Assembly: GCA_043819135.1 (NCBI GenBank)
Contig: JBDRFG010000109.1
Coordinates: 1 to 13,159 of the forward strand
Length of the DNA: 13,159 bases
Source of the DNA: Candidatus Eiseniibacteriota bacterium
GTDB taxonomy: Bacteria; Joyebacterota; Joyebacteria; Joyebacterales; Joyebacteraceae
Direction: 5' to 3'
Part shown: positions 1-13,159 of the stretch, piece by piece
Layout of the letters: the number at the start of each line of letters is the position of its first letter
How positions within the stretch are numbered: position 1 is the stretch's first letter
The notes under the pieces: model-generated
What the model was told of the DNA's origin: nothing
Seen by the model: the letters and a program-made list of their open reading frames with translations, nothing else
The model's database searches: none
Translations under genes and position numbers: made by a program

Positions 1-71
1 TCCTCGCCGCCGCCCTTCTGCGCAGCCTCAAGCCGCTCGTCCAGCTCTCTGAACTTATCTTCTCTCGACAT
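1..71 (-). CDS. 5' end (partial, runs off the window) of a probable acyl-CoA carboxyltransferase beta subunit (PccB/MmdA-like)
   Basis: ATG at 71-69, 2 nt after the stop of the MBL-fold gene. It translates to MSREDKFRELDERLEAAQKGGGE, matching the N-terminal helix + GGG that precedes ERIxKQHxKGK in carboxyltransferase subunits. Only 23 codons are visible; the acyl-CoA mutase context supports the call. Confidence 0.65.
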   Translation of the reverse strand, partial: MSREDKFRELDERLEAAQKGGGE

Positions 72-73
72 GG

Positions 74-928
74 TCAGGCCCCTATGTCTCTGAAGGCGAA
101 CCGACCCTTCTCGTCCTGCACGATCCGTCCGATGTTGCCGGTGACGTCGTGGTCGAGGATGACGACCCAGTCCTCGGCAACGGCAGTTTCGAGCATTTGT
201 CTTTTGCTCTCGATGACATCGAGCGGGAAGAGATCGATGCCCGCGATGTACGGCACGCGCACGTGGTGCCTGGTGGGAATGAGGTCCGCGGGGTACACGG
301 CCTTCCCCGCGTCCGTGCGTACGTAGACCGCCATGTGCCCGGCAGTGTGCCCGCCCGTGCGCCCGACGCTGACGCCGTCGCCCAGGTCGTGCGAGTCCCC
401 GACAAGGTCCAGCTGGCCTGCGCGCTCGATCGGCACGAAATCGTCCGGCCTGTATGCCGCCGAGCTTCTGGCGTCGGGGTGATTGGCCGCCTCCCACTCC
501 GTCTCGTTCACTATGTAGCGCGCGCGAGGGAACGTGGTCACCGCACCGTCGCCGCCATCGCTCGTGGAACCCGCGGCGTGGTCGGCGTGAAGGTGCGTGA
601 GCACCACGGTGTCGATGTCAGAGGGGGCGAGCCCCTCGTCCGCCAGTGCGGTGACGACCGTGACGGCGGGGTCGAACCCCCAGATCTTGAGGTCCCGCTC
701 TGTGTGCCTGCTGCCGTATCCGACGTCAACCACGATGTTGCGCGAGCCCGTCCGAACGAGCAGCGGGGACAGCGTAAGGATGATGCGGTTGAACTCGTCG
801 ACGGGCGTCAGATTGCTCCAGATGACCTTGGGGACGCCGCCGAACATCGCGCCGCCGTCGTACGGGAAGCTCCCCGCGTCGAGGCTCACGAGTTCGGTAT
901 CGCCCAGTGTGGTCCGTACGTTGGCCAT
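74..928 (-). CDS. Metallo-beta-lactamase-fold hydrolase (YtnP-like), 284 aa
   Basis: THLHADH (HxHxDH) metal motif, GHTAGH, ADLIP, terminal HD, and N-terminal DGGAMFGGVPKVIW typical of the YtnP-like subfamily. GAGGGA Shine-Dalgarno-like sequence before the ATG. Confidence 0.9.
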   Translation of the reverse strand: MANVRTTLGDTELVSLDAGSFPYDGGAMFGGVPKVIWSNLTPVDEFNRIILTLSPLLVRTGSRNIVVDVGYGSRHTERDLKIWGFDPAVTVVTALADEGLAPSDIDTVVLTHLHADHAAGSTSDGGDGAVTTFPRARYIVNETEWEAANHPDARSSAAYRPDDFVPIERAGQLDLVGDSHDLGDGVSVGRTGGHTAGHMAVYVRTDAGKAVYPADLIPTRHHVRVPYIAGIDLFPLDVIESKRQMLETAVAEDWVVILDHDVTGNIGRIVQDEKGRFAFRDIGA

Positions 929-1006
929 CGTCCCTCTCGAGTGTGGGGCCTGGCCCTTCAGTTCGTGCCCGTCGAGCGTCGGTCCCTCTACGTGAGGCCG
1001 GATCCG

Positions 1007-1411
1007 CTAGCCACGCCTTGCGGTGACGGCCTCGCGGATGTAGGCGGCGATCTCCCGGGTGTCGCTGCCCGGTCCGAAGAGCCTGTCGACGCCCATCTTC
1101 GCGAGCTCTTCCATATCCTCGGCGGGGATGATCCCGCCGCCGGTGATGACAACATCGTCCACGCCGGCCTCCCTGAGAAGCTCGAGGACCCGTGGGAACA
1201 TCGTCATGTGCGCACCGGAGAGGATACTGAGCGCGACGACGTCAACGTCTTCCTGGACGGCGGCGTTGACGATCATCTCGGGCGTCTGGTGAAGACCCGT
1301 GTAGATGACCTCCATGCCCGCGTCCCTCAAGGCGCTGGCAACCACCTTGGCGCCCCTGTCGTGGCCATCGAGTCCGGGCTTCGCTACCAGAACACGGATT
1401 CGGTCTGCCAT
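1007..1411 (-). CDS. Cobalamin-binding small subunit of acyl-CoA mutase (IcmB / MCM C-terminal domain type), 134 aa
   Basis: [13 protein letters not shown] (DxHxxG base-off/His-on motif), SILSGAH, GGGIIP. Lies directly downstream of the mutase large subunit. Confidence 0.95.
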
Positions 1412-1442
1412 ACGTCTTTCGTCTCCTCTACCATCGTCCCCT

Positions 1443-3111
<1,669 letters not shown>

Positions 3112-3119
<8 letters not shown>

Positions 3120-5091
3120 TGCTTCCTCCGATGAGAGCGAGCACCTGCGCCCGCATCTGTCCCGATGTGAAGTGGCTGGTCGACATGGCGCCGGACGGGC
3201 AGGCGGCCCCGCAGGTGCCGCACCCCTTGCAAAGCGCCTCGTTGACCCTCGAGACCTTGTCCTTCTCGTCGTACGAGATAGCGCCGTACGGACAGACGCT
3301 CACGCATATCCGGCAGCCGGAGCAGCGGTCCTCGTCCACCACCGCTGAGATGGCCTCAATCCTCACCGTGCCGCGCGACATCGGTATGATCGCCGAGGAG
3401 GCCGCGGCCTTGGCCTGCGACACGGTGTCCGGAATGTCTTTGGGGCCCTGGCAGCACCCGGCAAGGAACACGCCGTCGGTCGCCGTGTCCACGGGCCGGA
3501 GCTTCGGGTGCGCCTCCATGAGGAAGCGGTCGGACGACTTCGAGAGCTTGAGTATCTTCGCTATCGAGTCGGTGTGCTCGCTGGCCGTCAGTCCGGCAGC
3601 CAGCACTACGAGGTCGGCCTCGACCTCCATCGCCTCACCGATCAGAGTGTCCTCTCCCCTGACGACGACGCGGTCCCCGCGCTTGTAGATCTCGGAGACG
3701 CTGCCACGTCTGTAGACAACGTTCTCGCCTCTGACGCGATCGTAGAACTCCTCGTAGCCCTTCCCGAACGCCCTGACGTCCATATAGAAGACAGTGATAT
3801 TAGCGTCGGGCAGCTTCTCGCGTATCAGGTGCGCCTGCTTCGCCGTGAACATGCAGCAGACCCTGGAGCACCACTCGTTGCCTATCGACTGGTCGCGCGA
3901 CCCCACGCACTTGATGAAGACGACGTCCTTGGGCTCCTTCGCGCCAAACTCGATCTTGCCCTCGGTCGGGCCCGACGCGGAACATATTCGCTCGAACTCG
4001 AGTCCGGTGATGACGTTGTCGTAGATCCCGTACCCGAGTTCGGGTTTGATGTTGGGATCGAACTCGTCGAAACCGGTCGCCACGATGATCGTGCCCACCT
4101 TGAGCTCGACCACCTCGTCTTCCATCGAGTAGTCGATGGCGTTCAGAGTGCAGACCTTCTCGCACACGCCGCACTTCCCGTCCTTCAGGAAGTACGTGCA
4201 GTGCTCGCGGTCGATGACCGGCTCGCTGGGTACGGCCTGCGGGAACGGCGTGTAGATGGCCTTGCGCTCGCCGTACCCCTCGTCGAACTCCGACGGGACC
4301 TTGGACGGGCACTTGGCTATGCAGTCGCCGCAGCTGTTGCACAGATGCCGGTCGACGCTCGTGGCCCTCTTCCGGACCTTGACAGTGAAGTTGCCGACGT
4401 ACCCGGTGATGTCCTCGACCTCCGAGTAGACCATGAGGTTGATGTTCGGATGTCTTCCTACGTCGACCATCTTGGGCGTCAGGATGCAGGCCGAACAGTC
4501 GAGCGTCGGGAACGTCTTGTCGAGCTGCGCCATGTGCCCGCCGATCGACGGCTCCTTCTCGACCAGGTGCACCTTGTATCCGGCCTCGGCGATGTCGAAC
4601 GCCGCCTGTATGCCTGCTATGCCCGCGCCTATGACAAGGGCCTCGGGCGTCACCTCGATCTCACGCTCTGTAAGATCCTCGAGGTAGGCCGCCCTCGCCA
4701 CGGCGGACCGCACGAGGTCGATCGCCTTCTCGGTGGCATCCCCCTTGTCGTCGTGAATCCACGAGCAGTGCTCGCGTATGTTTGCCATGTCGAACATGTA
4801 GGGATTCAGGCCGACTGAAGCCACGGCTGCGCGGAACGTCGGCTCGTGCATTCTCGGCGAGCACGCGGCGACGACAACGCCCGTGAGGCCGTGCTCCTCG
4901 ATGTCCGCGCAGATGAGACTCTGCCCGGGGTCGGAGCACATGTAGGGATAGGTCTTGGCTATCGCGACACCAGGGAGTTTTGCGGTCGCCTCGGCCACCT
5001 TCTCGACATCGACGGTGTGCGCGATGTTGATGCCGCAGTGGCAGATGTAGACGCCGAGTCTGGTCTCGCGCATTGTGCTCTTCTCGGCCAC
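3112..5091 (-). CDS. hdrA: Heterodisulfide reductase subunit A-like flavo-iron-sulfur protein, 659 aa
   Basis: [33 protein letters not shown] motif, [21 protein letters not shown], inserted ferredoxin ([20 protein letters not shown]), CVGSRD...CSRVCC, C-terminal 2x CxxCxxCxxxCP. GTG start with GGAGG upstream. Its 3' end overlaps the mutase start by 8 nt. Confidence 0.95.
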
Positions 5092-5127
5092 GCGTTTCCT
5101 CCGGTTCGTGCCCTGTCCGGCCTGCGC

Positions 5128-6102
5128 TTAGGCGCGCGCCTCCGCTATCTTCTCCTTGAGCGCCGGGACGATCTTGAACAGGTCTCCGACGATGCCGTAG
5201 TCGGCCTTTGAGAAGATGGGGGCCTTGGGGTCCTTGTTGATGGCGACGATGGTCTCGGCCGCCTTCATTCCGCTCATGTGTTGGAACTGCCCGCTGATAC
5301 CGACCGCGATGTACAGCTTCGGCTTGACGGTCTTGCCGGAGGACCCGACCTGCCGGTCCTTCGGAAGCCACCCGGCGTCGACAACGGGCCGCGAGCAGCC
5401 GACAACCCCGCCAAGAAGCTCCGCGAGCTCTTCGACGAGCGCCAGATTCTCTTCTTCCTTTATGCCGCGACCGACCGCGATGATGACGTCGGACTTCGTG
5501 ATGTCGACGTCCCCGACGGCGGCCTCCACGTACTCCACGAAGCGGCGGATCGCCGGCTCGTCGGGCACGGTCACGTCGGGCTCGGACACGCTGCCGCTCC
5601 GCGTTCCGTCCTCTACCGGGAACGCAGCGGCGCGCACGGTCACGAGGGCGGTCGTCGCGTCGCAGAAACTCACGCGCTCGTCGATCTTTCCCTCGTAGAT
5701 CTGCCTGGTTACGGAGACCACGCCTCCGTCCACGGCGATGCCGATGCAGTCGCTCGCGAGCGGAGACCTGAGAGCGACGGCCAGACTCGGCGCCAGGTCG
5801 ACACCGAAGGCCGTGTTGCCGATCATGACCAGCGAGGGCCCGCGCGACTTCACGATTTCTGCGACGACCGGCTGGTAGACGGCCGAGTTGAAGCTGATGA
5901 GGTTGCCGTGATCGACGACGAGCACCTCGTCGGCGTAGCTCTTGAGCCTGCTCGCCATGTCCCCCACGCCCGCTCCGAGAAGCAGCGCGGTCACCGTCCC
6001 ACCCGACGACTCGGCCAGCGCTCCGGCCTTGCCCAGCATCTCGAAGGTGACGTCCCTGAGCTCGCCGCCCCTGTGTTCCGCAAGAACAAGAATTTCGTTC
6101 AT
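5128..6102 (-). CDS. etfA: Electron transfer flavoprotein alpha subunit, 324 aa
   Basis: GRG...GCSRPVVDAGW...QVGSSGKTVKPKLYIAVGISG...AINKDPKAPIF...DYGIVGDLF FAD-domain signature. The ATG abuts the etfB stop (TAGATG). Confidence 0.95.
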   Translation of the reverse strand: MNEILVLAEHRGGELRDVTFEMLGKAGALAESSGGTVTALLLGAGVGDMASRLKSYADEVLVVDHGNLISFNSAVYQPVVAEIVKSRGPSLVMIGNTAFGVDLAPSLAVALRSPLASDCIGIAVDGGVVSVTRQIYEGKIDERVSFCDATTALVTVRAAAFPVEDGTRSGSVSEPDVTVPDEPAIRRFVEYVEAAVGDVDITKSDVIIAVGRGIKEEENLALVEELAELLGGVVGCSRPVVDAGWLPKDRQVGSSGKTVKPKLYIAVGISGQFQHMSGMKAAETIVAINKDPKAPIFSKADYGIVGDLFKIVPALKEKIAEARA

Positions 6103-6891
6103 CTAGGCGAACCCTTTCTCCTTCAGAATGTCGGCGAGTTTCCCCGACGCTTCGGACGGCGTGCCTTCAAGTATCTCGGCGCCGGCGCCCGCCGGTGGGA
6201 ATGTCAGTTCCTCGAGCGTGGTCCCCGACCCGGCCTCCCCGACGGAGGATGCGTCCAGTCCGAGGTCGCCCGCGCTCTTCAGCTCTATCTCGCGCTTCGA
6301 CGCCTTCGCGATGCCCATGATGGACGCGTAGCGCGGCTCGTTGATACCGGTCTGGATGCCCAGCACGCACGGCAGCTTGATGACGAGCTTCTCGACGAGC
6401 CCGCCCTCGAGTTCGCGTCCGACGGTCACCTCACCGTCACCGACCTCGACCTCGGTGACGTACGTCGCGTGCGGAATACCCAGAAGCTCTGCGAGCGCAA
6501 CGCCGACCTGTGAGGCGCCGTCGTCCGAGGCCATGCACCCGGTGAGAACCAGGTCGTACTGCAGGCGCTTGATGGCCGCCGCCAGCGCCGTCGCGGTAGC
6601 TATCGCGTCGCCCCCGTCGAACGCCGGGTCGGCGACACGGACCGCGGTCGCCGCGCCCTTGGCCATGCTCATCCGGAGAACCTCCTCCGACGACTCGTGG
6701 CCGAGGGTCATGACGGTGATGTCACCGTCGTGCTTCTCAGTGATGAGAAGCGCCTCCTCGAGGGCGTAGTTGTCCGACTCGTTGATCTGAAGAGCCAGGC
6801 CCTCCTCGACGATGCCCTTGCCGCCGGCGGCGATCCTAAGATCGGCCTCGGCCGTCTCTGGCACCTGCTTCACACAGACGACTATGTTCAT
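6103..6891 (-). CDS. etfB: Electron transfer flavoprotein beta subunit, about 262 aa
   Basis: MNIVVCVKQVPE start (ATG 6891, preferred over the ORF-track start at 6951), INESDNYALEEAL, INEPRYAS motifs. Confidence 0.95.
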   Translation of the reverse strand: MNIVVCVKQVPETAEADLRIAAGGKGIVEEGLALQINESDNYALEEALLITEKHDGDITVMTLGHESSEEVLRMSMAKGAATAVRVADPAFDGGDAIATATALAAAIKRLQYDLVLTGCMASDDGASQVGVALAELLGIPHATYVTEVEVGDGEVTVGRELEGGLVEKLVIKLPCVLGIQTGINEPRYASIMGIAKASKREIELKSAGDLGLDASSVGEAGSGTTLEELTFPPAGAGAEILEGTPSEASGKLADILKEKGFA

Positions 6892-6961
6892 GTGTTCCCT
6901 GTTCCTCCGGAGTCGCGGTTGCGTGCGCGACCCAGCAAGAGGACGCGCCACTGCTCCCGGC

Positions 6962-8086
6962 CTAGAGCGCCATCGCGGCGAGTTCGGCCAGATCTATTAT
7001 TTCGATCTTTCCCTCGTTCCCGCTGGTCTTCACGGCGTCCTCGAGCGTCAAAAGGCAGAACGGACACGCCGTCACGAGGTAGTCGGCGCCCAGCGCCACC
7101 GCATCCTTGACGCGCGTCTCCGCCAGTCTCTCGCCCCGCTCCTCGGTCGCCTCCACCCACATCCGGCCGCCCCCGCCCTCGCAGCACAGCGCGCGCTCGC
7201 GCGAGCGGTCCATCTCGACGAACTCGACGCCGGGGATCCGCTCGAGCACCTCTCGCGGCTCGTCGTAGATGTCGTTGTGCTTGCCCAGGAAGCAGGCGTC
7301 GTGGAACGTCACCTTCTTCTCTACGCTTCCTGTGAACGTGAGCTTCCCGTCCTTCAGGAGCGTGGCGAGTAGCTGCGAGTAGTGGACCACGTCGCTCGGA
7401 AGCTCACCGTACTCGTTCTTGAATGTGTTCATGCAGTGAGGGGACCCGGTGACGATGGCGCCGATCTCGTGACCGTCGAACGTCTCACGGTTCCCGTCGA
7501 CCAGCATCTCAAAGAGCCCCTCTTCGCCCATCCGCTTGATCTCGTTGCCGCAGCACGATTCATTGGTCCCGAGCGTTGAGTACTCGAGTCCGGCGGCGGC
7601 GAAGAGCGCTACCAGCGACTGCGCTATCGACTGCGCTCTCGGATCGTATGCGGGCGTGCAGCCGACGTAAAAGAGAAGCGGGATGGCCTCGCCGTCTGCC
7701 GCGACCGGAACGGAAAGCTCGGCGGCCCATTCGGTTCTCTTGTCACGAATGCGGCCCCACGGATTGCCGTGCTTGAACGTGCTCTCCAGAGCGTCGCGGA
7801 TTGTCGGCTCTATCTTGCCCTTCTCGATGGCCGCAGACCGGAGGCCGATCAGCAGTTCCATCGGCTTGACGCCCTTAGGACATCGCTCGGTGCAATTCGA
7901 GCACGTCGTGCAGTTCCAGGCCTCGGGACGCCCCTTGGCGTCCTTCGGGCCCGTGCCGGTCATACCGTCGTAAACGACCCTCCGCACGTTTAGATACGTG
8001 CGAGCCGAGACGGGGCAGCCTGCCGTGCAGCGTCCACACTGGATGCATCCCAGGAGCTCGTACTTCTCTTGAAGCGAGACTCGCAT
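6962..8086 (-). CDS. Soluble HdrD/GlpC-like Fe-S oxidoreductase (two [4Fe-4S] motifs + two CCG domains), 374 aa
   Basis: CIQCGRCTAGCP and CTTCSNCTERCP; YVGC...CCG...SPHC; HDAC...CCEGGGG...CPFC. No obvious transmembrane segment. Confidence 0.9.
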   Translation of the reverse strand: MRVSLQEKYELLGCIQCGRCTAGCPVSARTYLNVRRVVYDGMTGTGPKDAKGRPEAWNCTTCSNCTERCPKGVKPMELLIGLRSAAIEKGKIEPTIRDALESTFKHGNPWGRIRDKRTEWAAELSVPVAADGEAIPLLFYVGCTPAYDPRAQSIAQSLVALFAAAGLEYSTLGTNESCCGNEIKRMGEEGLFEMLVDGNRETFDGHEIGAIVTGSPHCMNTFKNEYGELPSDVVHYSQLLATLLKDGKLTFTGSVEKKVTFHDACFLGKHNDIYDEPREVLERIPGVEFVEMDRSRERALCCEGGGGRMWVEATEERGERLAETRVKDAVALGADYLVTACPFCLLTLEDAVKTSGNEGKIEIIDLAELAAMAL

Positions 8087-8161
8087 GCGAGTGCCTTCTC
8101 CCGTCGTGTTCCGCCGGCCGGCGTACGAAAGCCTGCCCCGGCGGTTGGAGCCGTCCTCCGA

Positions 8162-9304
8162 TTACCTCAGAGCGTCGCGGGCAATGACTATCTTCTGGAT
8201 CTGGCTTGTGCCCTCGTAGATCTCGACGATCTTCGCGTCGCGGTACATCCGCTCGACCGGGTACTCCTTCGAGTAGCCGTTGCCGCCGTGGATCTGGACC
8301 GCCATTCTGGTCACGGCGACCACCGTCTCGGCAGCGAAGTACTTCGCTATCGCCGCCTCGCGCGTGAACCGCGTGGCGCCCGCGTCCTTCATCGAGCCCG
8401 CGCGGTAGACCAGAAGCCTCGCGGCGTCCGTCTGCGCCGACATCTGGGCGATCATGTCCTGGATCATTTCAAACTCAGCGATGGGCTTCCCGAACTGGAC
8501 GCGCTCCTTGGCGTACTTGATCGAGGCGTCGAGTGCTCCCTGCGAGATGCCGACGCCCTGCGCGCCGATGTCGATCCGGGAGACGTCGAGCGTGTGCATG
8601 ACGATCTTGAAACCGCCGCCCAGCTCGCCGAGGAGGTTCTCCTTCGGGACGATGCACTCGTCCATGATGAGCTCGCAGTTGCCGGTCGCGCGGATGCCCA
8701 TGAGGTTCTCGTGCTTGCCGACGCTGAAGCCGTCGAAGTCCTTCTCGACGACGAACGCGCTCATCCCCTTGTGGCGCTGCTCGGGGTCGGTGTAAGCGAA
8801 CACGACGAACGTCCCTGCGTCGGTCCCGTTCGTGATCCACGCCTTGGTCCCGTTCAGAACGTAGTGGTCGCCCTTGTCGACGGCGGTCGTCTCCATCGAG
8901 GCCGGGTCGGACCCGGCGTTCGGCTCGGTGATGCCGAAGGCGCCGAACTTCTTGCCCGAGCAGAGATCGGGCAGGTACTTCTTGCGCAGCTCTTCGGTCC
9001 CGAAGTGATAGATGGGATAGGCGCACAGTGAGTTATTGACCGCCGTTATGACGCCGTGCGAGGCGCAGACGCGCGAGATCTCCTCGCAGATGATGGCGAG
9101 GGTCGTGAAGTCCAGGCCCGCCCCGCCGTACTTCTCGGGAATGACGACGCCCATCAGTCCGAGCCCGGCCATCTTCTTGAGAGTGGCCGTCGGAAACTCG
9201 CGGCTCTCGTCGATCTCCGCCGCGATGGGCTCCAGTTCCTTCTCGGCGAATTCGCGCACCATGTCTCGGACCATCTTCTGGTCCTGGGTGAGTGCGAAGT
9301 CCAT
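8162..9304 (-). CDS. Short-chain acyl-CoA dehydrogenase (butyryl-CoA dehydrogenase-like), 380 aa
   Basis: GITEPNAGSD, LNGTKAWITNG, RVQFGKPI, QIHGGNGY, RDAKIVEIYEGTSQIQ with the catalytic Glu in IYEG. Confidence 0.95.
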   Translation of the reverse strand: MDFALTQDQKMVRDMVREFAEKELEPIAAEIDESREFPTATLKKMAGLGLMGVVIPEKYGGAGLDFTTLAIICEEISRVCASHGVITAVNNSLCAYPIYHFGTEELRKKYLPDLCSGKKFGAFGITEPNAGSDPASMETTAVDKGDHYVLNGTKAWITNGTDAGTFVVFAYTDPEQRHKGMSAFVVEKDFDGFSVGKHENLMGIRATGNCELIMDECIVPKENLLGELGGGFKIVMHTLDVSRIDIGAQGVGISQGALDASIKYAKERVQFGKPIAEFEMIQDMIAQMSAQTDAARLLVYRAGSMKDAGATRFTREAAIAKYFAAETVVAVTRMAVQIHGGNGYSKEYPVERMYRDAKIVEIYEGTSQIQKIVIARDALR

Positions 9305-9342
9305 GCAGTCCGCTCCCTTCTGAAACCTGCTCTTCGGATTCC

Positions 9343-10308
9343 CTAGGACGTTCCTCCGTCCATTCCGTCTATAACTTCCGTGGCAACCTGATAGGGGGAC
9401 CTGTACCCCCCGGTCACATCTTCTATCATCGCGTCGAGTCCGGACTCGCCACCCAGCCGCTCGTAGAGCTTCCGCTCGAGCCTGCTGACGATGATGCCCC
9501 GAACCTGCGACTTGAAGTGGTCGCGCCTTCGCTTCTGAAGCAGCCCGCCGTCGAGCAGGAACTGCCTGTGCTTCTCTATCGTCCCGGCAACCTCCGCTAT
9601 TCCCTCACCGGTAGACGCCACGGTCTTGAGAACCGGAGGATGCCAGCCGTTCGGGTCGTCTTTGAGGGTCAGCATCGAGCTGATCTCGGCCTCCGTCATG
9701 TCGGCGCCGTCGCGGTCGGCCTTGTTGACGATGAAGATCTCGCCGATCTCCATCAGTCCCGCCTTCATCGCCTGGATGCTGTCGCCGGACTCCGGAACCA
9801 GGACGATGACCGTGGTATCCGCGGCCTCGGCGATGTCGAGTTCAGACTGCCCGACACCGACGGTCTCGAAGATGACGTAGTCCAGCCCGGCCGCGTCCAT
9901 GGCGGCCGCGACGCTCGGCGCCGCGCGGGACAGACCTCCCAGTCCGCCGCGGGTCGCCATGCTGCGGATGAAGACGCCCTCGCGGGTGCCCAGCCCCTGC
10001 ATCCGAATGCGGTCGCCCAGGAGCGCGCCGCCCGTGAAGGGGCTCGTCGGATCGACCGCGATGATCCCGACCGTGTGTCCCGCATCCAGAAGGTGCTCGG
10101 TCAGACCGTCGACCAGGGTGCTCTTCCCCGCGCCGGGCGGTCCGGAGATCCCTATCCGGTAGGACCTGCCGCTGTCCGGATATATGACATTCAGGAGCTC
10201 GAGGCCGCACGCGTCCTCGTTCTCGATCCAGGAGATGGCCCGCGCCAGCGCGAGCGCCTCGCCCTTCTTCAATCTCTCGATCAGTTCCGGAACGCCTGCG
10301 CTCCTCAC
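9343..10308 (-). CDS. meaB: MeaB/ArgK-family mutase-associated GTPase (B12 chaperone), 321 aa
   Basis: GPPGAGKST P-loop, AVDPTSPFTGGALLGDRIRM, FIRSMATRG, ETVGVGQSE, NKAD. GTG start with GGAGG upstream. Confidence 0.95.
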   Translation of the reverse strand: MRSAGVPELIERLKKGEALALARAISWIENEDACGLELLNVIYPDSGRSYRIGISGPPGAGKSTLVDGLTEHLLDAGHTVGIIAVDPTSPFTGGALLGDRIRMQGLGTREGVFIRSMATRGGLGGLSRAAPSVAAAMDAAGLDYVIFETVGVGQSELDIAEAADTTVIVLVPESGDSIQAMKAGLMEIGEIFIVNKADRDGADMTEAEISSMLTLKDDPNGWHPPVLKTVASTGEGIAEVAGTIEKHRQFLLDGGLLQKRRRDHFKSQVRGIIVSRLERKLYERLGGESGLDAMIEDVTGGYRSPYQVATEVIDGMDGGTS

Positions 10309-10334
10309 TACTCCTCCATGCTGCCGCCGGTGGC

Positions 10335-10862
10335 TTAGTACTCTATGCCCTCTCGCGCCTCCACTCCGGCGTCGTAGTGGTGTCTGATGTTCAGTACTTC
10401 GCTGACAAGATCGGCGGCCCTGACTACGTCGGGATGAGCGGAGCGGCCCGTCAGGATGAGTTCGACGTGCGCGGGTCTCGTCTCGATAAGAGAGAGAATG
10501 TCATCGAGGCTTATCAGTCCGAAGTCAAGCGCGACGTTGGCCTCATCGAGGATGACGATGTCGTAGTCGCCGCTCTCGACGGCCGCCCGCGCCTTCGCGA
10601 GACCCTGGGCGGCCAGCTCGATGTCGACCTGCGCCGGGTTCTTCTTGTCGACGAACTCGTCGCGGCCCGACTGCTCGATCGTGAAGCCCGGTAGCTTCTC
10701 TGCCGAAGTCAGCTCGCCGTAGTTCGAGCTGCCCTTCATGAACTGCAGCATGTATACGGAGAGGCCGTGGCCGACGGCCCGGATAGCCAGCCCGAGCGCG
10801 GCGGTCGTCTTGCCCTTCCCGTCACCGGTGTAGACCTGCACGGTGCCACGCCTCTCGGGCAC
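10335..10862 (-). CDS. cobO: CobA/CobO/BtuR-type cob(I)alamin adenosyltransferase, about 175 aa
   Basis: VYTGDGKGKTTAA short P-loop, QFMKG, ILDE, LTGR, HYDAGVEAREGIEY C-terminus. Start placed at GTG 10862 because GGAGG lies 5 nt upstream; the in-frame ATG at 10892 is an alternative. Confidence 0.92.
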   Translation of the reverse strand: MPERRGTVQVYTGDGKGKTTAALGLAIRAVGHGLSVYMLQFMKGSSNYGELTSAEKLPGFTIEQSGRDEFVDKKNPAQVDIELAAQGLAKARAAVESGDYDIVILDEANVALDFGLISLDDILSLIETRPAHVELILTGRSAHPDVVRAADLVSEVLNIRHHYDAGVEAREGIEY

Positions 10863-10985
10863 TGGCTCCTCCGTGGATTCAGGATATGCCATCGGTACGT
10901 AACCCGACGGTTCGACGCGTAGCCTCGAAACTCGAATTGTGGGGGCGTAGGCGCCCACACAGGCTGGAACTGGCAAATCCGGCAA

Positions 10986-11015
10986 ATGCTAGCATGTAGG
11001 GACCCGTAGCGTCAA
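10986..11015 (-). promoter_or_regulatory. Putative sigma70-type promoter of the cobO-meaB-acd-hdr-etf-mutase operon
   Basis: Minus strand reads TTGACG (11015-11010), 18-nt spacer, TAGCAT (10991-10986), with an extended -10 TG (TGcTAGCAT). Confidence 0.65.
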
Positions 11016-11285
11016 GAACGGTCCAGTGAGCGCGTCCCGGCCCCGGCCGTGCGCGCACCTCGATCACCCCCACGAGCGGCGGGCTCAGGAACCGCCGAGG
11101 GGTACCGACCAAGCTGACCGAGCGATCAATCGAGACCCGCCCGGGAGAGACAGGAGCGCGTGATTTCGCTTCGAAACGCTCTCGATGACTCAATCTGAAC
11201 TCGTTACGATGCCCCGTGTTTTCGGCAGGTATTTGGTCCGTCGTCCTGTTTGGTGAGCGGCAGCCTAGAATGAAGAGGTGGAGGA

Positions 11286-11480
11286 GTGAGGCACCTGCTA
11301 ATCGTGTTGCTGGTGTTGTCCGTCGCCGTGTCCGCCGGCGCGAGGAGCATCGCGGGCGGCTGGTGCCTGAAGGGAGACATCTGGGGCGAGCCGCCGCACG
11401 GAGTTTGCGGATCCATCGATATCCGGGTGACGCCGGTCGAGGTATCGACGTGGGGCGCTATCAAGGCCATGTATGACTAG
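11286..11480 (+). CDS. Small secreted protein (64 aa): signal peptide + two-Cys core + C-terminal TPVE-x-STWGAIKAMY tail
   Basis: GTG start preceded by GAGGTG. MRHLLIVLLVLSVAVSAGA is a typical Sec signal (basic n-region, hydrophobic core, AxA cleavage). The stop is followed 25 nt later by a strong hairpin. Confidence 0.75.
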   Translation: MRHLLIVLLVLSVAVSAGARSIAGGWCLKGDIWGEPPHGVCGSIDIRVTPVEVSTWGAIKAMYD

Positions 11481-11505
11481 CACGGCACGAGCAGTATAAC
11501 ATAGC

Positions 11506-11538
11506 AGAAGGCCCCGGTCGCGATGACCGGGGCCTTCT
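11506..11538. terminator. Hairpin between the convergent mini-protein and tmRNA genes; probable bidirectional intrinsic terminator
   Basis: Perfect 14-bp inverted repeat AGAAGGCCCCGGTC-gcgat-GACCGGGGCCTTCT, 8 nt beyond the tmRNA CCA end. U-tracts are weak on both strands (TTCT...). Confidence 0.75.
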
Positions 11539-11546
11539 CTATGTAC

Positions 11547-11918
11547 TGGTGGAGGCGGCGGGAATCGAACCCGCGTCCGAAAGTGGTTCCGCGCGGACAT
11601 CTACATGCATAGCCCGATGTCTAGATCTCGCTCCCCGGGTCTCCGACGGGCGGGATACCCAGGATGCCAGCCGCCGTGTTCACTTCGCTTCCTCCCCCAG
11701 CGGTCAAGTTCGGAAGCTAGCCCGTGTAAGCGACGCCCCATCCCGGCACCACGAGCCAAACCGGGCGGGACGCGTCAGTTCTAACTAGTGGAACTAGTTA
11801 GCAGACGTATGCCGGTGTGTAGTCGGCAGTTGAAAAGTCCCCGTTTGTTTTACGAGCCAACGGGACCTCGACATGCCATCCGCGTTTCTCTCACCCCCGT
11901 CGAAACCGGATCGCCCCC
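11547..11918 (-). ncRNA. ssrA: tmRNA (transfer-messenger RNA), one-piece, 372 nt
   Basis: 5' GGGGGCGATCCGGTTTCGAC; 3' GGACGCGGGTTCGATTCCCGCCGCCTCCACCA (T-arm + encoded CCA). Acceptor stem GGGGGCG/CGCCTCC has the G3:U alanine identity pair. A pk1-like pseudoknot (CGAG/CTCG stem; loop GTCCCGTT pairing with AACGGGGAC) precedes the tag frame. Confidence 0.97.
11798..11827 (-). other. tmRNA tag reading frame: (A)ADYTPAYVC-stop
   Basis: After pk1 the RNA reads TTTTCAACT GCC GAC TAC ACA CCG GCA TAC GTC TGC TAA. The GCC resume codon sits in the usual context, and the stop is embedded in the hairpin CTAACTAG-ttcca-CTAGTTAG. Confidence 0.8.
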
Positions 11919-12024: not shown

Positions 12025-12402
12025 CTATTTCCCCCCCGTCGAGACCATCTTGAAGACCTCGTAGGAGCGTCCCTCGTGAAGAATGGGCTTCTCGAAGGCC
12101 TCACGCAGGGCGTCCGGGTCCGTCTGCGTCGGGTCGTACTCGATGAGCGCCGTGTGGGTACGCGAGTAGGCGACGAAGCTGACGACGCCGGGCACGGCCT
12201 GGATCTGCTGCGAGAACGCCATCGCGGTCCCGCGACATTTGAGCCCCGAGACCTCGAATTCGACCGTCGACACCGTGGCCGGACGGTCGCCTTCCTCTAC
12301 GAACGTGACGTCCGCCGTGGGAACGCGATACGCGTTCGTGGTCGCGAATGCCAGGAGCACGACGAGAGCTATGGCAAGCGGGATGATGGCTGACTTCTTC
12401 AT
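12025..12402 (-). CDS. Exported or membrane-anchored heavy-metal-associated (HMA)-fold protein, 125 aa
   Basis: ATG 12402 with a purine-rich upstream sequence (GGGGAAGG). MKKSAIIPLAIALVVLLAFATTNA is a signal/anchor. VEFEVSGLKCRGT...VPGV...ALIEYDP follows the HMA pattern but has only one Cys. Confidence 0.75.
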   Translation of the reverse strand: MKKSAIIPLAIALVVLLAFATTNAYRVPTADVTFVEEGDRPATVSTVEFEVSGLKCRGTAMAFSQQIQAVPGVVSFVAYSRTHTALIEYDPTQTDPDALREAFEKPILHEGRSYEVFKMVSTGGK

Positions 12403-12421
12403 GTCGGTTCCTTCCCCCGAT

Positions 12422-13159
12422 CTACTTTCCGAACCAGGAGAGCTCAAGCGCGCCGTCCACCGGGCACTCCTCGATGCACTCGAGGCAGTTCGTGCAGTCC
12501 CTCGCCGTCACCTCGTCGACCTGCGACACGGGGATCGCGTGAGGGCACGCCCTGTCGCAGGCCCCGCAGTTCGTGCACGTCTTCTTGTTGCGACGGACCC
12601 GGAGCGCTCCCGCCCGGGACAGCGGGTCCATGGCGGCTCCCATCGGACAGAGGTAGCGGCACCAGAGGAACGGAACGAAGAGCGCCGCGCCGAGAACACC
12701 GACGACGATGAGGAAGCTCAGTGCGGCCGTCCCGTGCCCTCCCCAGGTGAACAGGATGTAAAAGGGATCGAACGCCCTGAAGCCGAGGTCGAACTTCCAT
12801 ACCGTGACCGTCAGCACCGGAACGGCGACGAGGACGACGTAACGCAGGTTCTTGAGCACACGGTCCGCGCGAGTTGGAAGGCGGAAGCGTCTGCGGAAGA
12901 TCTTCCCGCCCAGCCGGCCCAGCCACTCCTGGACGGTCCCCAGCGGACAGACCCAACCGCAGAACGACTTCTTCGACAGGAGCGTCAGCACGAGCACCGA
13001 CACCAGCAGCGCGACGTTCAGCTCCGTCAGTGCGCACGCGTAGGACTTGTAGCGCACGAGCGGATAGAGGGCGACGAGCCCTCCGAACGGGCAATAGAAC
13101 TCGCACGTGTTGGGCGTGTGGCCCGCAAGCCCCCTGATGAACAGCGCCACCACGCCCGC
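12422..13159 (-). CDS. Membrane-bound 4Fe-4S binding protein (NapH/MauN-like polyferredoxin), 5'-partial
   Basis: CEFYCPFGG, FCGWVCPLG and WCRYLCPMG (CxxxCP motifs) flank hydrophobic segments; C-terminal CTNCGACDRACP and CTNCLECIEECP. The frame stays open to the window edge. Confidence 0.88.
   Translation of the reverse strand, partial: AGVVALFIRGLAGHTPNTCEFYCPFGGLVALYPLVRYKSYACALTELNVALLVSVLVLTLLSKKSFCGWVCPLGTVQEWLGRLGGKIFRRRFRLPTRADRVLKNLRYVVLVAVPVLTVTVWKFDLGFRAFDPFYILFTWGGHGTAALSFLIVVGVLGAALFVPFLWCRYLCPMGAAMDPLSRAGALRVRRNKKTCTNCGACDRACPHAIPVSQVDEVTARDCTNCLECIEECPVDGALELSWFGK

Follow-up and report, generated by a model that had tools for sequence, protein, structure and literature searches.

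The window analysed here, a stretch of 13,159 nt, is the entire contig C109 (JBDRFG010000109.1) of a Candidatus Eiseniibacteriota genome, G000, which is 92% complete with 64% GC. Eleven minus-strand genes run from position 10862 to the contig end at base 1 and bring together an acyl-CoA mutase and a redox block made of an acyl-CoA dehydrogenase, an Fe-S protein, an electron-transfer flavoprotein (ETF), as well as an HdrA, the function of which is considered here. The run opens with a cobO/btuR-type ATP:corrinoid adenosyltransferase (10335..10862; above the cut-offs of TIGR00708 and NF004637) and the mutase-chaperone GTPase gene meaB (9343..10308; TIGR00750, 329 bits against a cut-off of 241). 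The redox block follows, beginning with acd1, a short-chain, butyryl-CoA-type acyl-CoA dehydrogenase by its Pfam and Protein Data Bank (PDB) matches (8162..9304), and a soluble EtfD/BamD-type Fe-S protein with two cubane motifs and two CCG domains, hereafter the CCG protein (6962..8086). Next are etfB, which has an apparently non-bifurcating AMP-type motif (GCMASDDGASQVG) and 1O94 as its best PDB match (6103..6891), etfA, with the Pfam ETF and ETF_alpha domains only and no ferredoxin domain (5128..6102), and a full-length hdrA that matches 5ODC chain A and has no fused MvhD (3112..5091; alternative ATG at 5073). The mutase genes close the set, with a large subunit of predicted isobutyryl-CoA type (1443..3119; TIGR00641, RQFSGF and KEYIAQK) and a B12-binding small subunit (1007..1411; TIGR00640, DGHDRG). 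They are followed by a metallo-beta-lactamase (MBL)-fold hydrolase, YtnP-like below cut-off in the family scan (74..928), and the first 23 codons of a propionyl-CoA-carboxylase-type carboxyltransferase (1..71), a gene of 516 aa in relatives, the C-terminal part of which was found on contig C155 of G000. The hydrolase gene is kept inside the operon at 62-91% identity, and a thioester-hydrolase or clean-up role for it is a guess.

A first-pass annotation had described eleven co-oriented genes with gaps below 80 nt behind one promoter-like element, and gene calls and family scans agree with that description. From cobO onward the intergenic gaps are 26, 38, 75, 70, 0, 36, -8, 31, 78, and 2 nt, with etfB and etfA abutting and hdrA and the mutase gene overlapping by 8 nt. 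Upstream-region alignment places a sigma-70-type promoter at 10986..11015 on the minus strand (-35 box TTGACG, 18-nt spacing, extended -10 box TG-TAGCAT). The pattern alone is weak, with 4 matches in the window versus 1.7±1.2 in shuffled sequences; the element is kept in all 14 upstream regions that were aligned, two of them being identical to each other. The same alignment sets the start of cobO at the GTG at 10862, an upstream ATG at 10892 not being conserved. About 25 nt past the -10 box, the 5' leader holds a GC-rich inverted repeat (10938..10961, minus strand) with a stem predicted in 13/13 distinct leaders; both arms are altered in the window and folding z-scores are not significant, so that the repeat may be either a hairpin or an operator/regulator site. 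We found no credible terminator within the run, the minus-strand matches being 5-pair stems inside the CCG gene, and terminator-like matches in the window are at chance level in total (9 versus 5.1±2.5). The eleven genes are thus predicted to be cotranscribed as one operon.

Base 1 is the end of the contig, not of the run, and the eleven genes described above form the leading part of a conserved set of 32 predicted to serve branched-chain acyl-CoA metabolism. The HdrA search comprised 41 genomes, from which 16 orthologous loci in 15 genomes of the family and four paralogous loci were fetched; the family itself is represented by 31 genomes in eight genera, and a phylum-wide search gave the same 31. 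Window gene order is kept, to the contig limits, in 16/16 orthologous hdrA loci (15/15 family genomes), and in the four paralogous loci the mutase, Acd, and ETF genes of the operon are all absent. A second dehydrogenase gene, acd2, follows the small subunit in relatives whose contigs span that stretch and was not found in G000. A sulfatase gene is inserted in G010 and G016, and hdrA is split in G010 and G013. An apparent acd-ccg fusion in G014 (L032, 6550-6653) was rejected as a scaffold N-gap artefact.

The co-oriented continuation is contiguous in G005, G008, G010, G014, G016, and G046. It comprises, in order, the carboxyltransferase, biotin carboxylase, biotin carrier, second mutase large subunit, and methylmalonyl-CoA epimerase; a Leu/Val-dehydrogenase-family gene, 3-hydroxy-3-methylglutaryl-CoA (HMG-CoA) synthase, thiolase, a DUF35 gene, and methylcrotonyl-CoA-carboxylase-type subunits with a hydratase; and then acd3, butyrate kinase, crotonase, a second Leu/Val-dehydrogenase-family gene, and biotin ligase. 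In G046 three more genes follow, which motifs rather than a family scan identify as thymidine kinase, 3-hydroxyacyl-CoA dehydrogenase, and an additional thiolase-like gene, bringing the run to 32 genes over at least 34.3 kb. The whole run therefore includes two mutase large subunits, two biotin carboxylases, three acyl-CoA dehydrogenases, and two Leu/Val-dehydrogenase-family genes. In G000, the continuation genes lie on C155, C60, and C140, which are joined by direct overlaps of 115 and 93 nt, and C109 and C155 show no overlap with each other. Across the 31 genomes, the CCG protein occurs in 18, the mutases in 18, HMG-CoA synthase in 17, and the carboxylase in 19, in the same five of the eight genera except for one occurrence of the carboxylase in a sixth.

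Profile matches agree with the first-read gene identities for every gene except the one called hdrD, for which a different redox role is indicated. The window mutase has F86 and Q204 where methylmalonyl-CoA mutase has Tyr89 and Arg207, and so lacks the Tyr and Arg of that enzyme; at the aligned substrate positions, human methylmalonyl-CoA mutase reads Y/R, 4R3U reads I/Q, and the 5REQ chain reads F. We take the F/Q pair to be the signature of isobutyryl-CoA mutase, and the alignment supports a predicted isobutyryl-CoA type for the window gene. The second large subunit (C155/C60) is of the Y/R type, with RQYAGF and KEYAARG. A separate B12-binding subunit with DxHxxG, MeaB, and the adenosyltransferase accompany the mutase in the window, and since G000 yielded a single B12-binding subunit, a single meaB, and a single cobO, these likely serve both mutases. 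The best PDB matches of Acd1 are 5OL2 chain C, 4L1F, 9W60, and short-chain acyl-CoA dehydrogenase, and its closeness to butyryl-CoA dehydrogenases fits oxidation of the mutase product. On its own, the mutase part is ordinary. The available part of a study on Syntrophothermus lipocalidus (PMC5017805) describes a cluster of icmA, icmB, adenosyltransferase, and meaB for isobutyryl-CoA isomerisation, the same four gene types carrying out isomerisation ahead of beta-oxidation, whereas the window interleaves a redox block and is followed by a Y/R large subunit that lacks its own small subunit.

Against mycobacterial EtfD, the 374-aa CCG protein scores E 1e-62, compared with 9e-16 for HdrC and 4e-6 for HdrB, and its best solved relative is EtfD 9OJN. 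Its cluster residues are C143, C178-C179, and S215-P-H217-C218, followed by C265, C301-C302, C341, and C344. A heterodisulfide reductase would have ten cysteines and an open coenzyme M (CoM)/coenzyme B site, and here there are nine, with S215 and H217, a histidine that would plug the site. In contrast, the features of EtfD and of the membrane-bound ETF:(methyl)menaquinone oxidoreductase (EMO) are present (two cubanes, a CCG pair, a His at the CoM site, etf neighbours), apart from their N-terminal membrane heme b domain, as no NarI-type domain was found in the CCG protein. The supposed hdrD is, by these motifs, a membrane-less EtfD/BamD-type protein and not a heterodisulfide reductase. The motif SPHC is kept in 98/100 CCG homologues at 48% identity or higher and in 3/22 more distant ones; several distant hdrA-linked paralogues without ETF read CPEC, CPSC, or CPEG. 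One homologue (P0025), 75% identical, carries the NCBI label Candidatus Eisenbacteria. A second Hdr cluster in G000 (C152; L135) has an HdrA with an in-frame TGA (likely selenocysteine), a 970-aa HdrA, mvhD, and a CCG paralogue reading CPEG.

EtfB carries SDDGA, is closest to 1O94, and lacks the IDGDT motif that is present in 6FAH, 4KPU, 5OL2, 7KOE, and the other ETF of G000 (bcd-etfBA locus, C113). This beta-subunit motif presumably marks bifurcating (group 2) ETFs, and the operon ETF looks non-bifurcating by comparison. HdrA aligns end to end with 5ODC chain A (E 2e-247, residues 1-644), with K412 at the position of the flavin Lys409 and cluster cysteine motifs kept. It has the domain set, the cysteines, and the flavin N5 Lys of a bifurcating HdrA, without an adjacent or fused MvhD adaptor; a conserved Lys at flavin N5 is given as the hallmark of bifurcating HdrA in the accessible text of bioRxiv 10.64898/2026.04.10.717634. 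By analogy, HdrA most likely bifurcates or confurcates electrons between ETF, ferredoxin, and NAD(P)(H). The original proposal of an isobutyryl-type mutase, a butyryl-type Acd, an intact bifurcating-type HdrA, and anaerobic acyl-CoA redox is thus retained, while its Hdr-like complex in the heterodisulfide sense is not.

In other lineages, the block is joined by NAD(P)H modules, including mvhD-flxCBA-like genes (L051, L059, L065, L078, L079, L096), nuoEFG alongside the block (L094, L169, L170), and a GltD insert (L168, L173, L174). NuoE and NuoF are spliced into HdrA itself in G010, G013, L171, and L172. The spliced HdrA is cut in its inserted ferredoxin domain, with NuoE on the N half, NuoF between, and 2Fe-2S/ferredoxin on the C half (7023-12109 of L043 in G010; 6571-11722 of L042 in G013). 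L166 and L083 contain a split HdrA without nuoF. In G000, contig C13 (L144, 9559-12958) encodes mvhD, a 2Fe-2S protein, a FAD_binding_2 flavoprotein, and a protease-like gene at the contig end, and this mvhD set is one candidate to partner an HdrA. As the NAD partner of HdrA, the flxBA-like genes of C151 were rejected, since they head an Mbh hydrogenase operon in five relatives. This Mbh/Mrp-type operon (L255-L259 in G005, G006, G010, G014, and G008; C151/C28 in G000) is headed by AsrA-like, PyrK-like, 560-aa NuoG-like, and 160-aa Fe-S genes, which suggests an NAD(P)H input module. G000 also encodes a NuoEF-GltD set, five 2-oxoacid oxidoreductase matches, and the Mbh-type hydrogenase; this 92% complete genome gave no match for Rnf, [FeFe]-hydrogenase, or MqnA/D. 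The NarI-type membrane domain (PF02665) was detected in 0/31 family genomes; the same model found EMO-sized ORFs of 721 and 727 aa in G051, and the CCG region of one of them is 38% identical to the window's CCG protein.

To place the redox block beyond the family, we compared the best 80 of 132 CCG loci from metagenomes and the best 80 of 607 HdrA loci from named genomes, both sets seeded by window proteins and containing related sequences. Among the 80 CCG loci, etf is present in 60, hdrA in 41, acd in 39, and etf with hdrA in 28; a mutase was near only 3, all at least 70% identical to the window. Wide flanks were available for 28 CCG loci, with etf in 24, hdrA in 17, acd in 21, all three in 10, and a mutase in 2. 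Loci of the form ccg-etfB-etfA-acd without hdrA nearby also occur (L204-L206, L210, L218, L221-L225); those inspected look archaeal (TFIIB and SMC neighbours), and their CCG gene has no adjoining membrane partner. The fetched flank of 25 of the 80 HdrA loci contains etf, and 4 of these 25 (L056, L065, L074, and L094, from two other phyla) include a mutase, in each case with the F/Q residues. The isobutyryl-CoA mutase link therefore recurs in three phyla and is not the rule. Because its distribution is mostly without a mutase, the redox block appears to be a mobile unit, and the mutase link is better viewed as pathway co-regulation than as the special mutase-redox coupling originally suggested.

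We lean, without great assurance, towards a soluble HdrA-CCG-ETF link that would serve the three acyl-CoA dehydrogenases of the branched-chain run by confurcation in the oxidative direction, in place of a membrane ETF:quinone enzyme. From gene identities, valine would be converted to isobutyryl-CoA and, via the window mutase, to n-butyryl-CoA, which Acd1, crotonase, 3-hydroxyacyl-CoA dehydrogenase, and thiolase would take to two acetyl-CoA. Isoleucine would yield propionyl-CoA, which the carboxylase, epimerase, and second mutase would convert to succinyl-CoA. Leucine would pass through isovaleryl-CoA, methylcrotonyl-CoA, and methylglutaconyl-CoA to HMG-CoA, and the two carboxylases probably share the biotin ligase encoded in the run. 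By analogy with BamDE–ETF, electrons would pass from acyl-CoA to an Acd, to diffusible ETF, through the non-cubane and cubane clusters of the CCG protein, and to the HdrA flavin, a path for which we infer that these proteins form a complex. At this flavin, the electron of high potential would join one of low potential from reduced ferredoxin, which 2-oxoacid:ferredoxin oxidoreductases would supply. HdrA-type bifurcation requires a mid-potential partner, and the acceptor is most likely NAD(P)+, reached via an MvhD-type adaptor encoded elsewhere. The oxidative direction is supported by the ATP-dependent biotin carboxylase subunits of both carboxylases and by the amino-acid dehydrogenases in the run. 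In addition, ilvD was found in 1/31 genomes and hisB in 0/5, which suggests amino-acid auxotrophs, and a separate, canonical bifurcating Bcd-EtfAB (C113) is available for reduction.

Several observations weigh against this oxidative, confurcating link. No mvhD or NAD module lies in the window operon, and the four mvhD matches in G000 are all at other loci. In calculations from textbook potentials, 1:1 confurcating acyl-CoA oxidation, taken as butyryl-CoA with reduced ferredoxin and NAD+, is uphill by 10-25 kJ/mol and feasible only with enoyl-CoA kept about 100-fold low, a state that ATP-driven carboxylation and thiolysis could maintain. In eleven of the 28 wide-flank CCG loci, the CCG-etfBA-acd block has no hdrA within 7 kb, and two of those 11 carry it just past nuoEFG. 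UbiA-family genes (PF01040) occur in 31/31 genomes, a result that is uninformative as a quinone test, and the MqnA/D search covered G000 only. The shared genus distribution reflects one operon and is therefore no independent evidence that the genes act together. BCR II, the class II benzoyl-CoA reductase from which the analogy comes, short-circuits reduced ferredoxin to ETF in vitro, and coupled bifurcation was not measurable there, according to the portion of the preprint available (bioRxiv 10.64898/2026.04.10.717634). Lastly, neither HMG-CoA lyase nor any member of the HMGL-like family (lyase plus LeuA) was found in the 31 genomes, so that the leucine branch would need the HMG-CoA synthase trio to run in reverse. 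This archaeal-type HMG-CoA synthase/thiolase/DUF35 trio (TIGR00748 above cut-off; E 4e-139 to 6ESQ) adjoins the methylcrotonyl-CoA carboxylase genes on C60 of G000 (L132, 8037-10804). A mevalonate role for it was rejected for most of the family, with HMG-CoA reductase in 3/31 genomes and DXR in 30/31. The trio would then have to work in reverse, unless the leucine branch itself starts at acetyl-CoA. The fullest version of the proposal, in which a stand-alone, membrane-free HdrA-type ETF:ferredoxin:NAD oxidoreductase oxidises all three branched-chain amino acids by confurcation and the reversed trio yields three acetyl-CoA without a lyase, is doubtful, if possible.

It is unlikely, though not strongly so, that the run operates reductively, with HdrA bifurcating NAD(P)H electrons to ETF and ferredoxin. 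Acetyl-CoA would then be converted via HMG-CoA and methylcrotonyl-CoA to isovaleryl-CoA, and crotonyl-CoA via butyryl-CoA to isobutyryl-CoA, making the run an electron sink, a source of branched acyl-CoAs, or even a source of valine, leucine, and isoleucine. This direction is downhill by the same 10-25 kJ/mol, is that of BCR II, and would employ the trio as the bona fide HMG-CoA synthase that its TIGR00748 and 6ESQ matches indicate. The missing HMGL-like family (0/31), the counts for HMG-CoA reductase, DXR, and ilvD, and the butyrate kinase within the run also fit. However, each of the two biotin enzymes has a biotin carboxylase subunit, as is usual for carboxylases, and the separate bifurcating Bcd-EtfAB already handles crotonyl-CoA reduction. 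Histidine synthesis is also missing and three genera are without the whole run, and de novo synthesis of the three amino acids therefore does not seem to be required in the family.

It is distinctly unlikely that HdrA serves as a two-ended wire, with ETF contacted via the CCG protein at one end and either ferredoxin or an NAD(P) module at the other, the inserted ferredoxin domain. An mvhD match close to hdrA-ccg-etf is lacking in the window and in L056, L074, L109, L130, L178, L184, L185, L193, and L194, the inserted ferredoxin domain, which is normally the low-potential arm, is where the NuoEF and GltD modules are spliced in, and the ferredoxin-to-ETF short circuit of BCR II would be the kind of transfer expected. 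A wire could not oxidise acyl-CoAs, however, and would waste about 90 kJ per reduction (textbook potentials). The flavin Lys is moreover kept in every HdrA with a pattern-matched motif (39/47 loci), and the C-terminal ferredoxin domain, the normal relay through MvhD, is intact.

The dedicated pathway first proposed for the operon, in which isomerisation between isobutyryl-CoA and n-butyryl-CoA is coupled to redox via an Hdr-like complex, now appears very unlikely. The F/Q mutase and the butyryl-CoA-type Acd1 suit it, as do the F/Q mutases beside ccg-etf-hdrA in L056, L065, L074, and L094. But the eleven genes head a valine/leucine/isoleucine-type cluster with 21 further genes, leucine and isoleucine branches included, and likely share cobO, meaB, and the B12 subunit with a second mutase. 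A mutase is near the block in only 4/25 etf-bearing HdrA loci and 3/80 CCG loci, and the mutase reaction is redox-neutral by established chemistry. Scarcely credible is a true disulfide reductase of the HdrA-HdrD kind acting on an unspecified thiol pair with ETF a mere neighbour, since despite the homology of the CCG protein to HdrC and HdrB and the soluble HdrD genes that adjoin hdrA in Desulfobacterium autotrophicum (PMC2702500, in the part available), there are nine rather than ten cysteines and a His at the CoM site, etf adjoins the CCG subfamily in 60/80 loci (24/28 with wide flanks), and canonical hdrCB genes lie elsewhere in the genome.

The remainder of the window contains features apart from this system. 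A transfer-messenger RNA (tmRNA) lies at 11547-11918 on the minus strand (Rfam RF00023, 201 bits), accompanied by a separate promoter-like site (11991-11963) and a hairpin of 14 pairs (11506-11538); the Rfam scan found this tmRNA only and nothing credible across 10850-11560. On the plus strand, a 64-aa open reading frame (11286-11480) has a signal-peptide-like start and a short C-terminal tail, and it seems to be internally shortened because the versions at this place in relatives are 173-174 aa. The minus strand of 12025-13159 encodes an HMA-domain protein and a NapH-like membrane 4Fe-4S protein. Upstream of cobO, a NapH-like gene is likewise found in G008, and NapH-like and HMA-domain genes are found in G046.

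In syntrophic and sediment metabolism, a main energetic difficulty for anaerobes is where to put the high-potential electrons of acyl-CoA dehydrogenases, and the accepted solution is a membrane ETF:menaquinone enzyme that proton-motive force drives. The locus points to a soluble alternative made of four electron-transfer genes in a lineage without a detected membrane enzyme. If true, this would be a third solution beside EMO and the bifurcating ETF, and it may account for certain bacterial HdrA and Flx-Hdr loci for which the presumed disulfide partner never turned up. A 2021 review of HdrA modules by Appel and the 2019 papers on BCR II may already list such clusters. The parts are known, and HdrA–CCG–ETF wiring has already been shown inside BCR II; the stand-alone HdrA-CCG-ETF-Acd unit was not found described in the open-access literature, a scope that excludes subscription papers and preprint supplements (BamD, NCB-domain phylogenies). 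The portions available of PMC6085437, PMC5736913, PMC2702500, PMC7382037, PMC5109826, PMC6687939, PMC7764203, and bioRxiv 10.1101/2024.08.04.606487 do not describe it. Within the same literature, BamD, HdrA, ETF, and an acyl-CoA dehydrogenase appear together only in the BCR II preprint, and the idea of an HMG-CoA synthase trio with the carboxylase had no close match. What the window adds is the setting, with a single B12 subunit to supply two mutases, a single ETF behind three dehydrogenases, and the module in its smallest form.

Compared with known systems, the run shares carboxylase, hydratase, and acyl-CoA dehydrogenase genes with the leucine/isovalerate route of Desulfococcus multivorans, which, as far as the available text of PMC5109826 goes, uses methylcrotonyl-CoA carboxylase and HMG-CoA lyase. 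Unlike that route, it has the archaeal-type trio (6ESQ) in place of a lyase, none being found in the 31 genomes. In FlxABCD–HdrABC, HdrA likewise links NAD(H), ferredoxin, and a high-potential partner, which is proposed in the accessible sections of PMC6687939 to be a disulfide (DsrC) at HdrB. The partner in the window would be ETF, and no flx genes are present, whereas the order ccg-etfBA-hdrA-mvhD-flxCBA occurs in six loci of other phyla. With Bcd–EtfAB and CarCDE (5OL2, 4KPU, 6FAH; PMC6085437, consulted in part), the predicted unit shares a soluble overall reaction of enoyl-CoA/acyl-CoA, ferredoxin, and NAD(H). In Bcd–EtfAB, the ETF beta-flavin bifurcates in a fixed complex, whereas the window ETF is without the corresponding motif and the predicted site is HdrA. 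EMO and mycobacterial EtfD (PMC13083937, available in part; PDB 9OJN) resemble the CCG protein in their two cubanes and two CCG domains, CoM-site His, altered distal cluster, and etf and acd gene neighbours, and EMO His534 blocks the CoM site according to the part of bioRxiv 10.64898/2026.08.18.745454 at hand. The distal ligands differ, with C179 in the window where EtfD has T539 and S215 where it has C581. Unlike EMO/EtfD, the window protein has no membrane heme b domain, and HdrA takes its place in the gene order.

The closest likeness is to the BamDE(F)–ETF arm of BCR II from Geobacter metallireducens. In the accessible text on that complex, the distal cluster of BamD shows a Cys→Ser exchange and a His ligand, a non-bifurcating ETF is bound to BamD in situ, and BCR II reduced ETF in vitro (bioRxiv 10.64898/2026.04.10.717634). 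Going by that description, both systems combine an HdrA-type flavoprotein having the flavin Lys with a fused HdrC/B-like partner whose distal cluster has Ser for Cys and a His ligand, and with a non-bifurcating ETF as high-potential partner; a HydBC-like NAD module occurs in some relatives. The residue pattern of the CCG protein and the spacing of its H217/W310/F343 agree with those given for BamD (H230/W325/Y356), which was compared by the preprint description only. The 32-gene run differs in having no tungsten BamBC, BamF, or BamGHI (AOR-family matches are on other contigs), a single HdrA instead of a fused dimer, and acyl-CoA dehydrogenases as ETF partners. Furthermore, no EMO to reoxidise ETF was found, and the predicted direction is the opposite one. 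As a minimal version of the 1-MDa HdrA–BamD–ETF wiring, the window's unit would thus be a practical object for testing whether HdrA can couple ETF, ferredoxin, and NAD(H).

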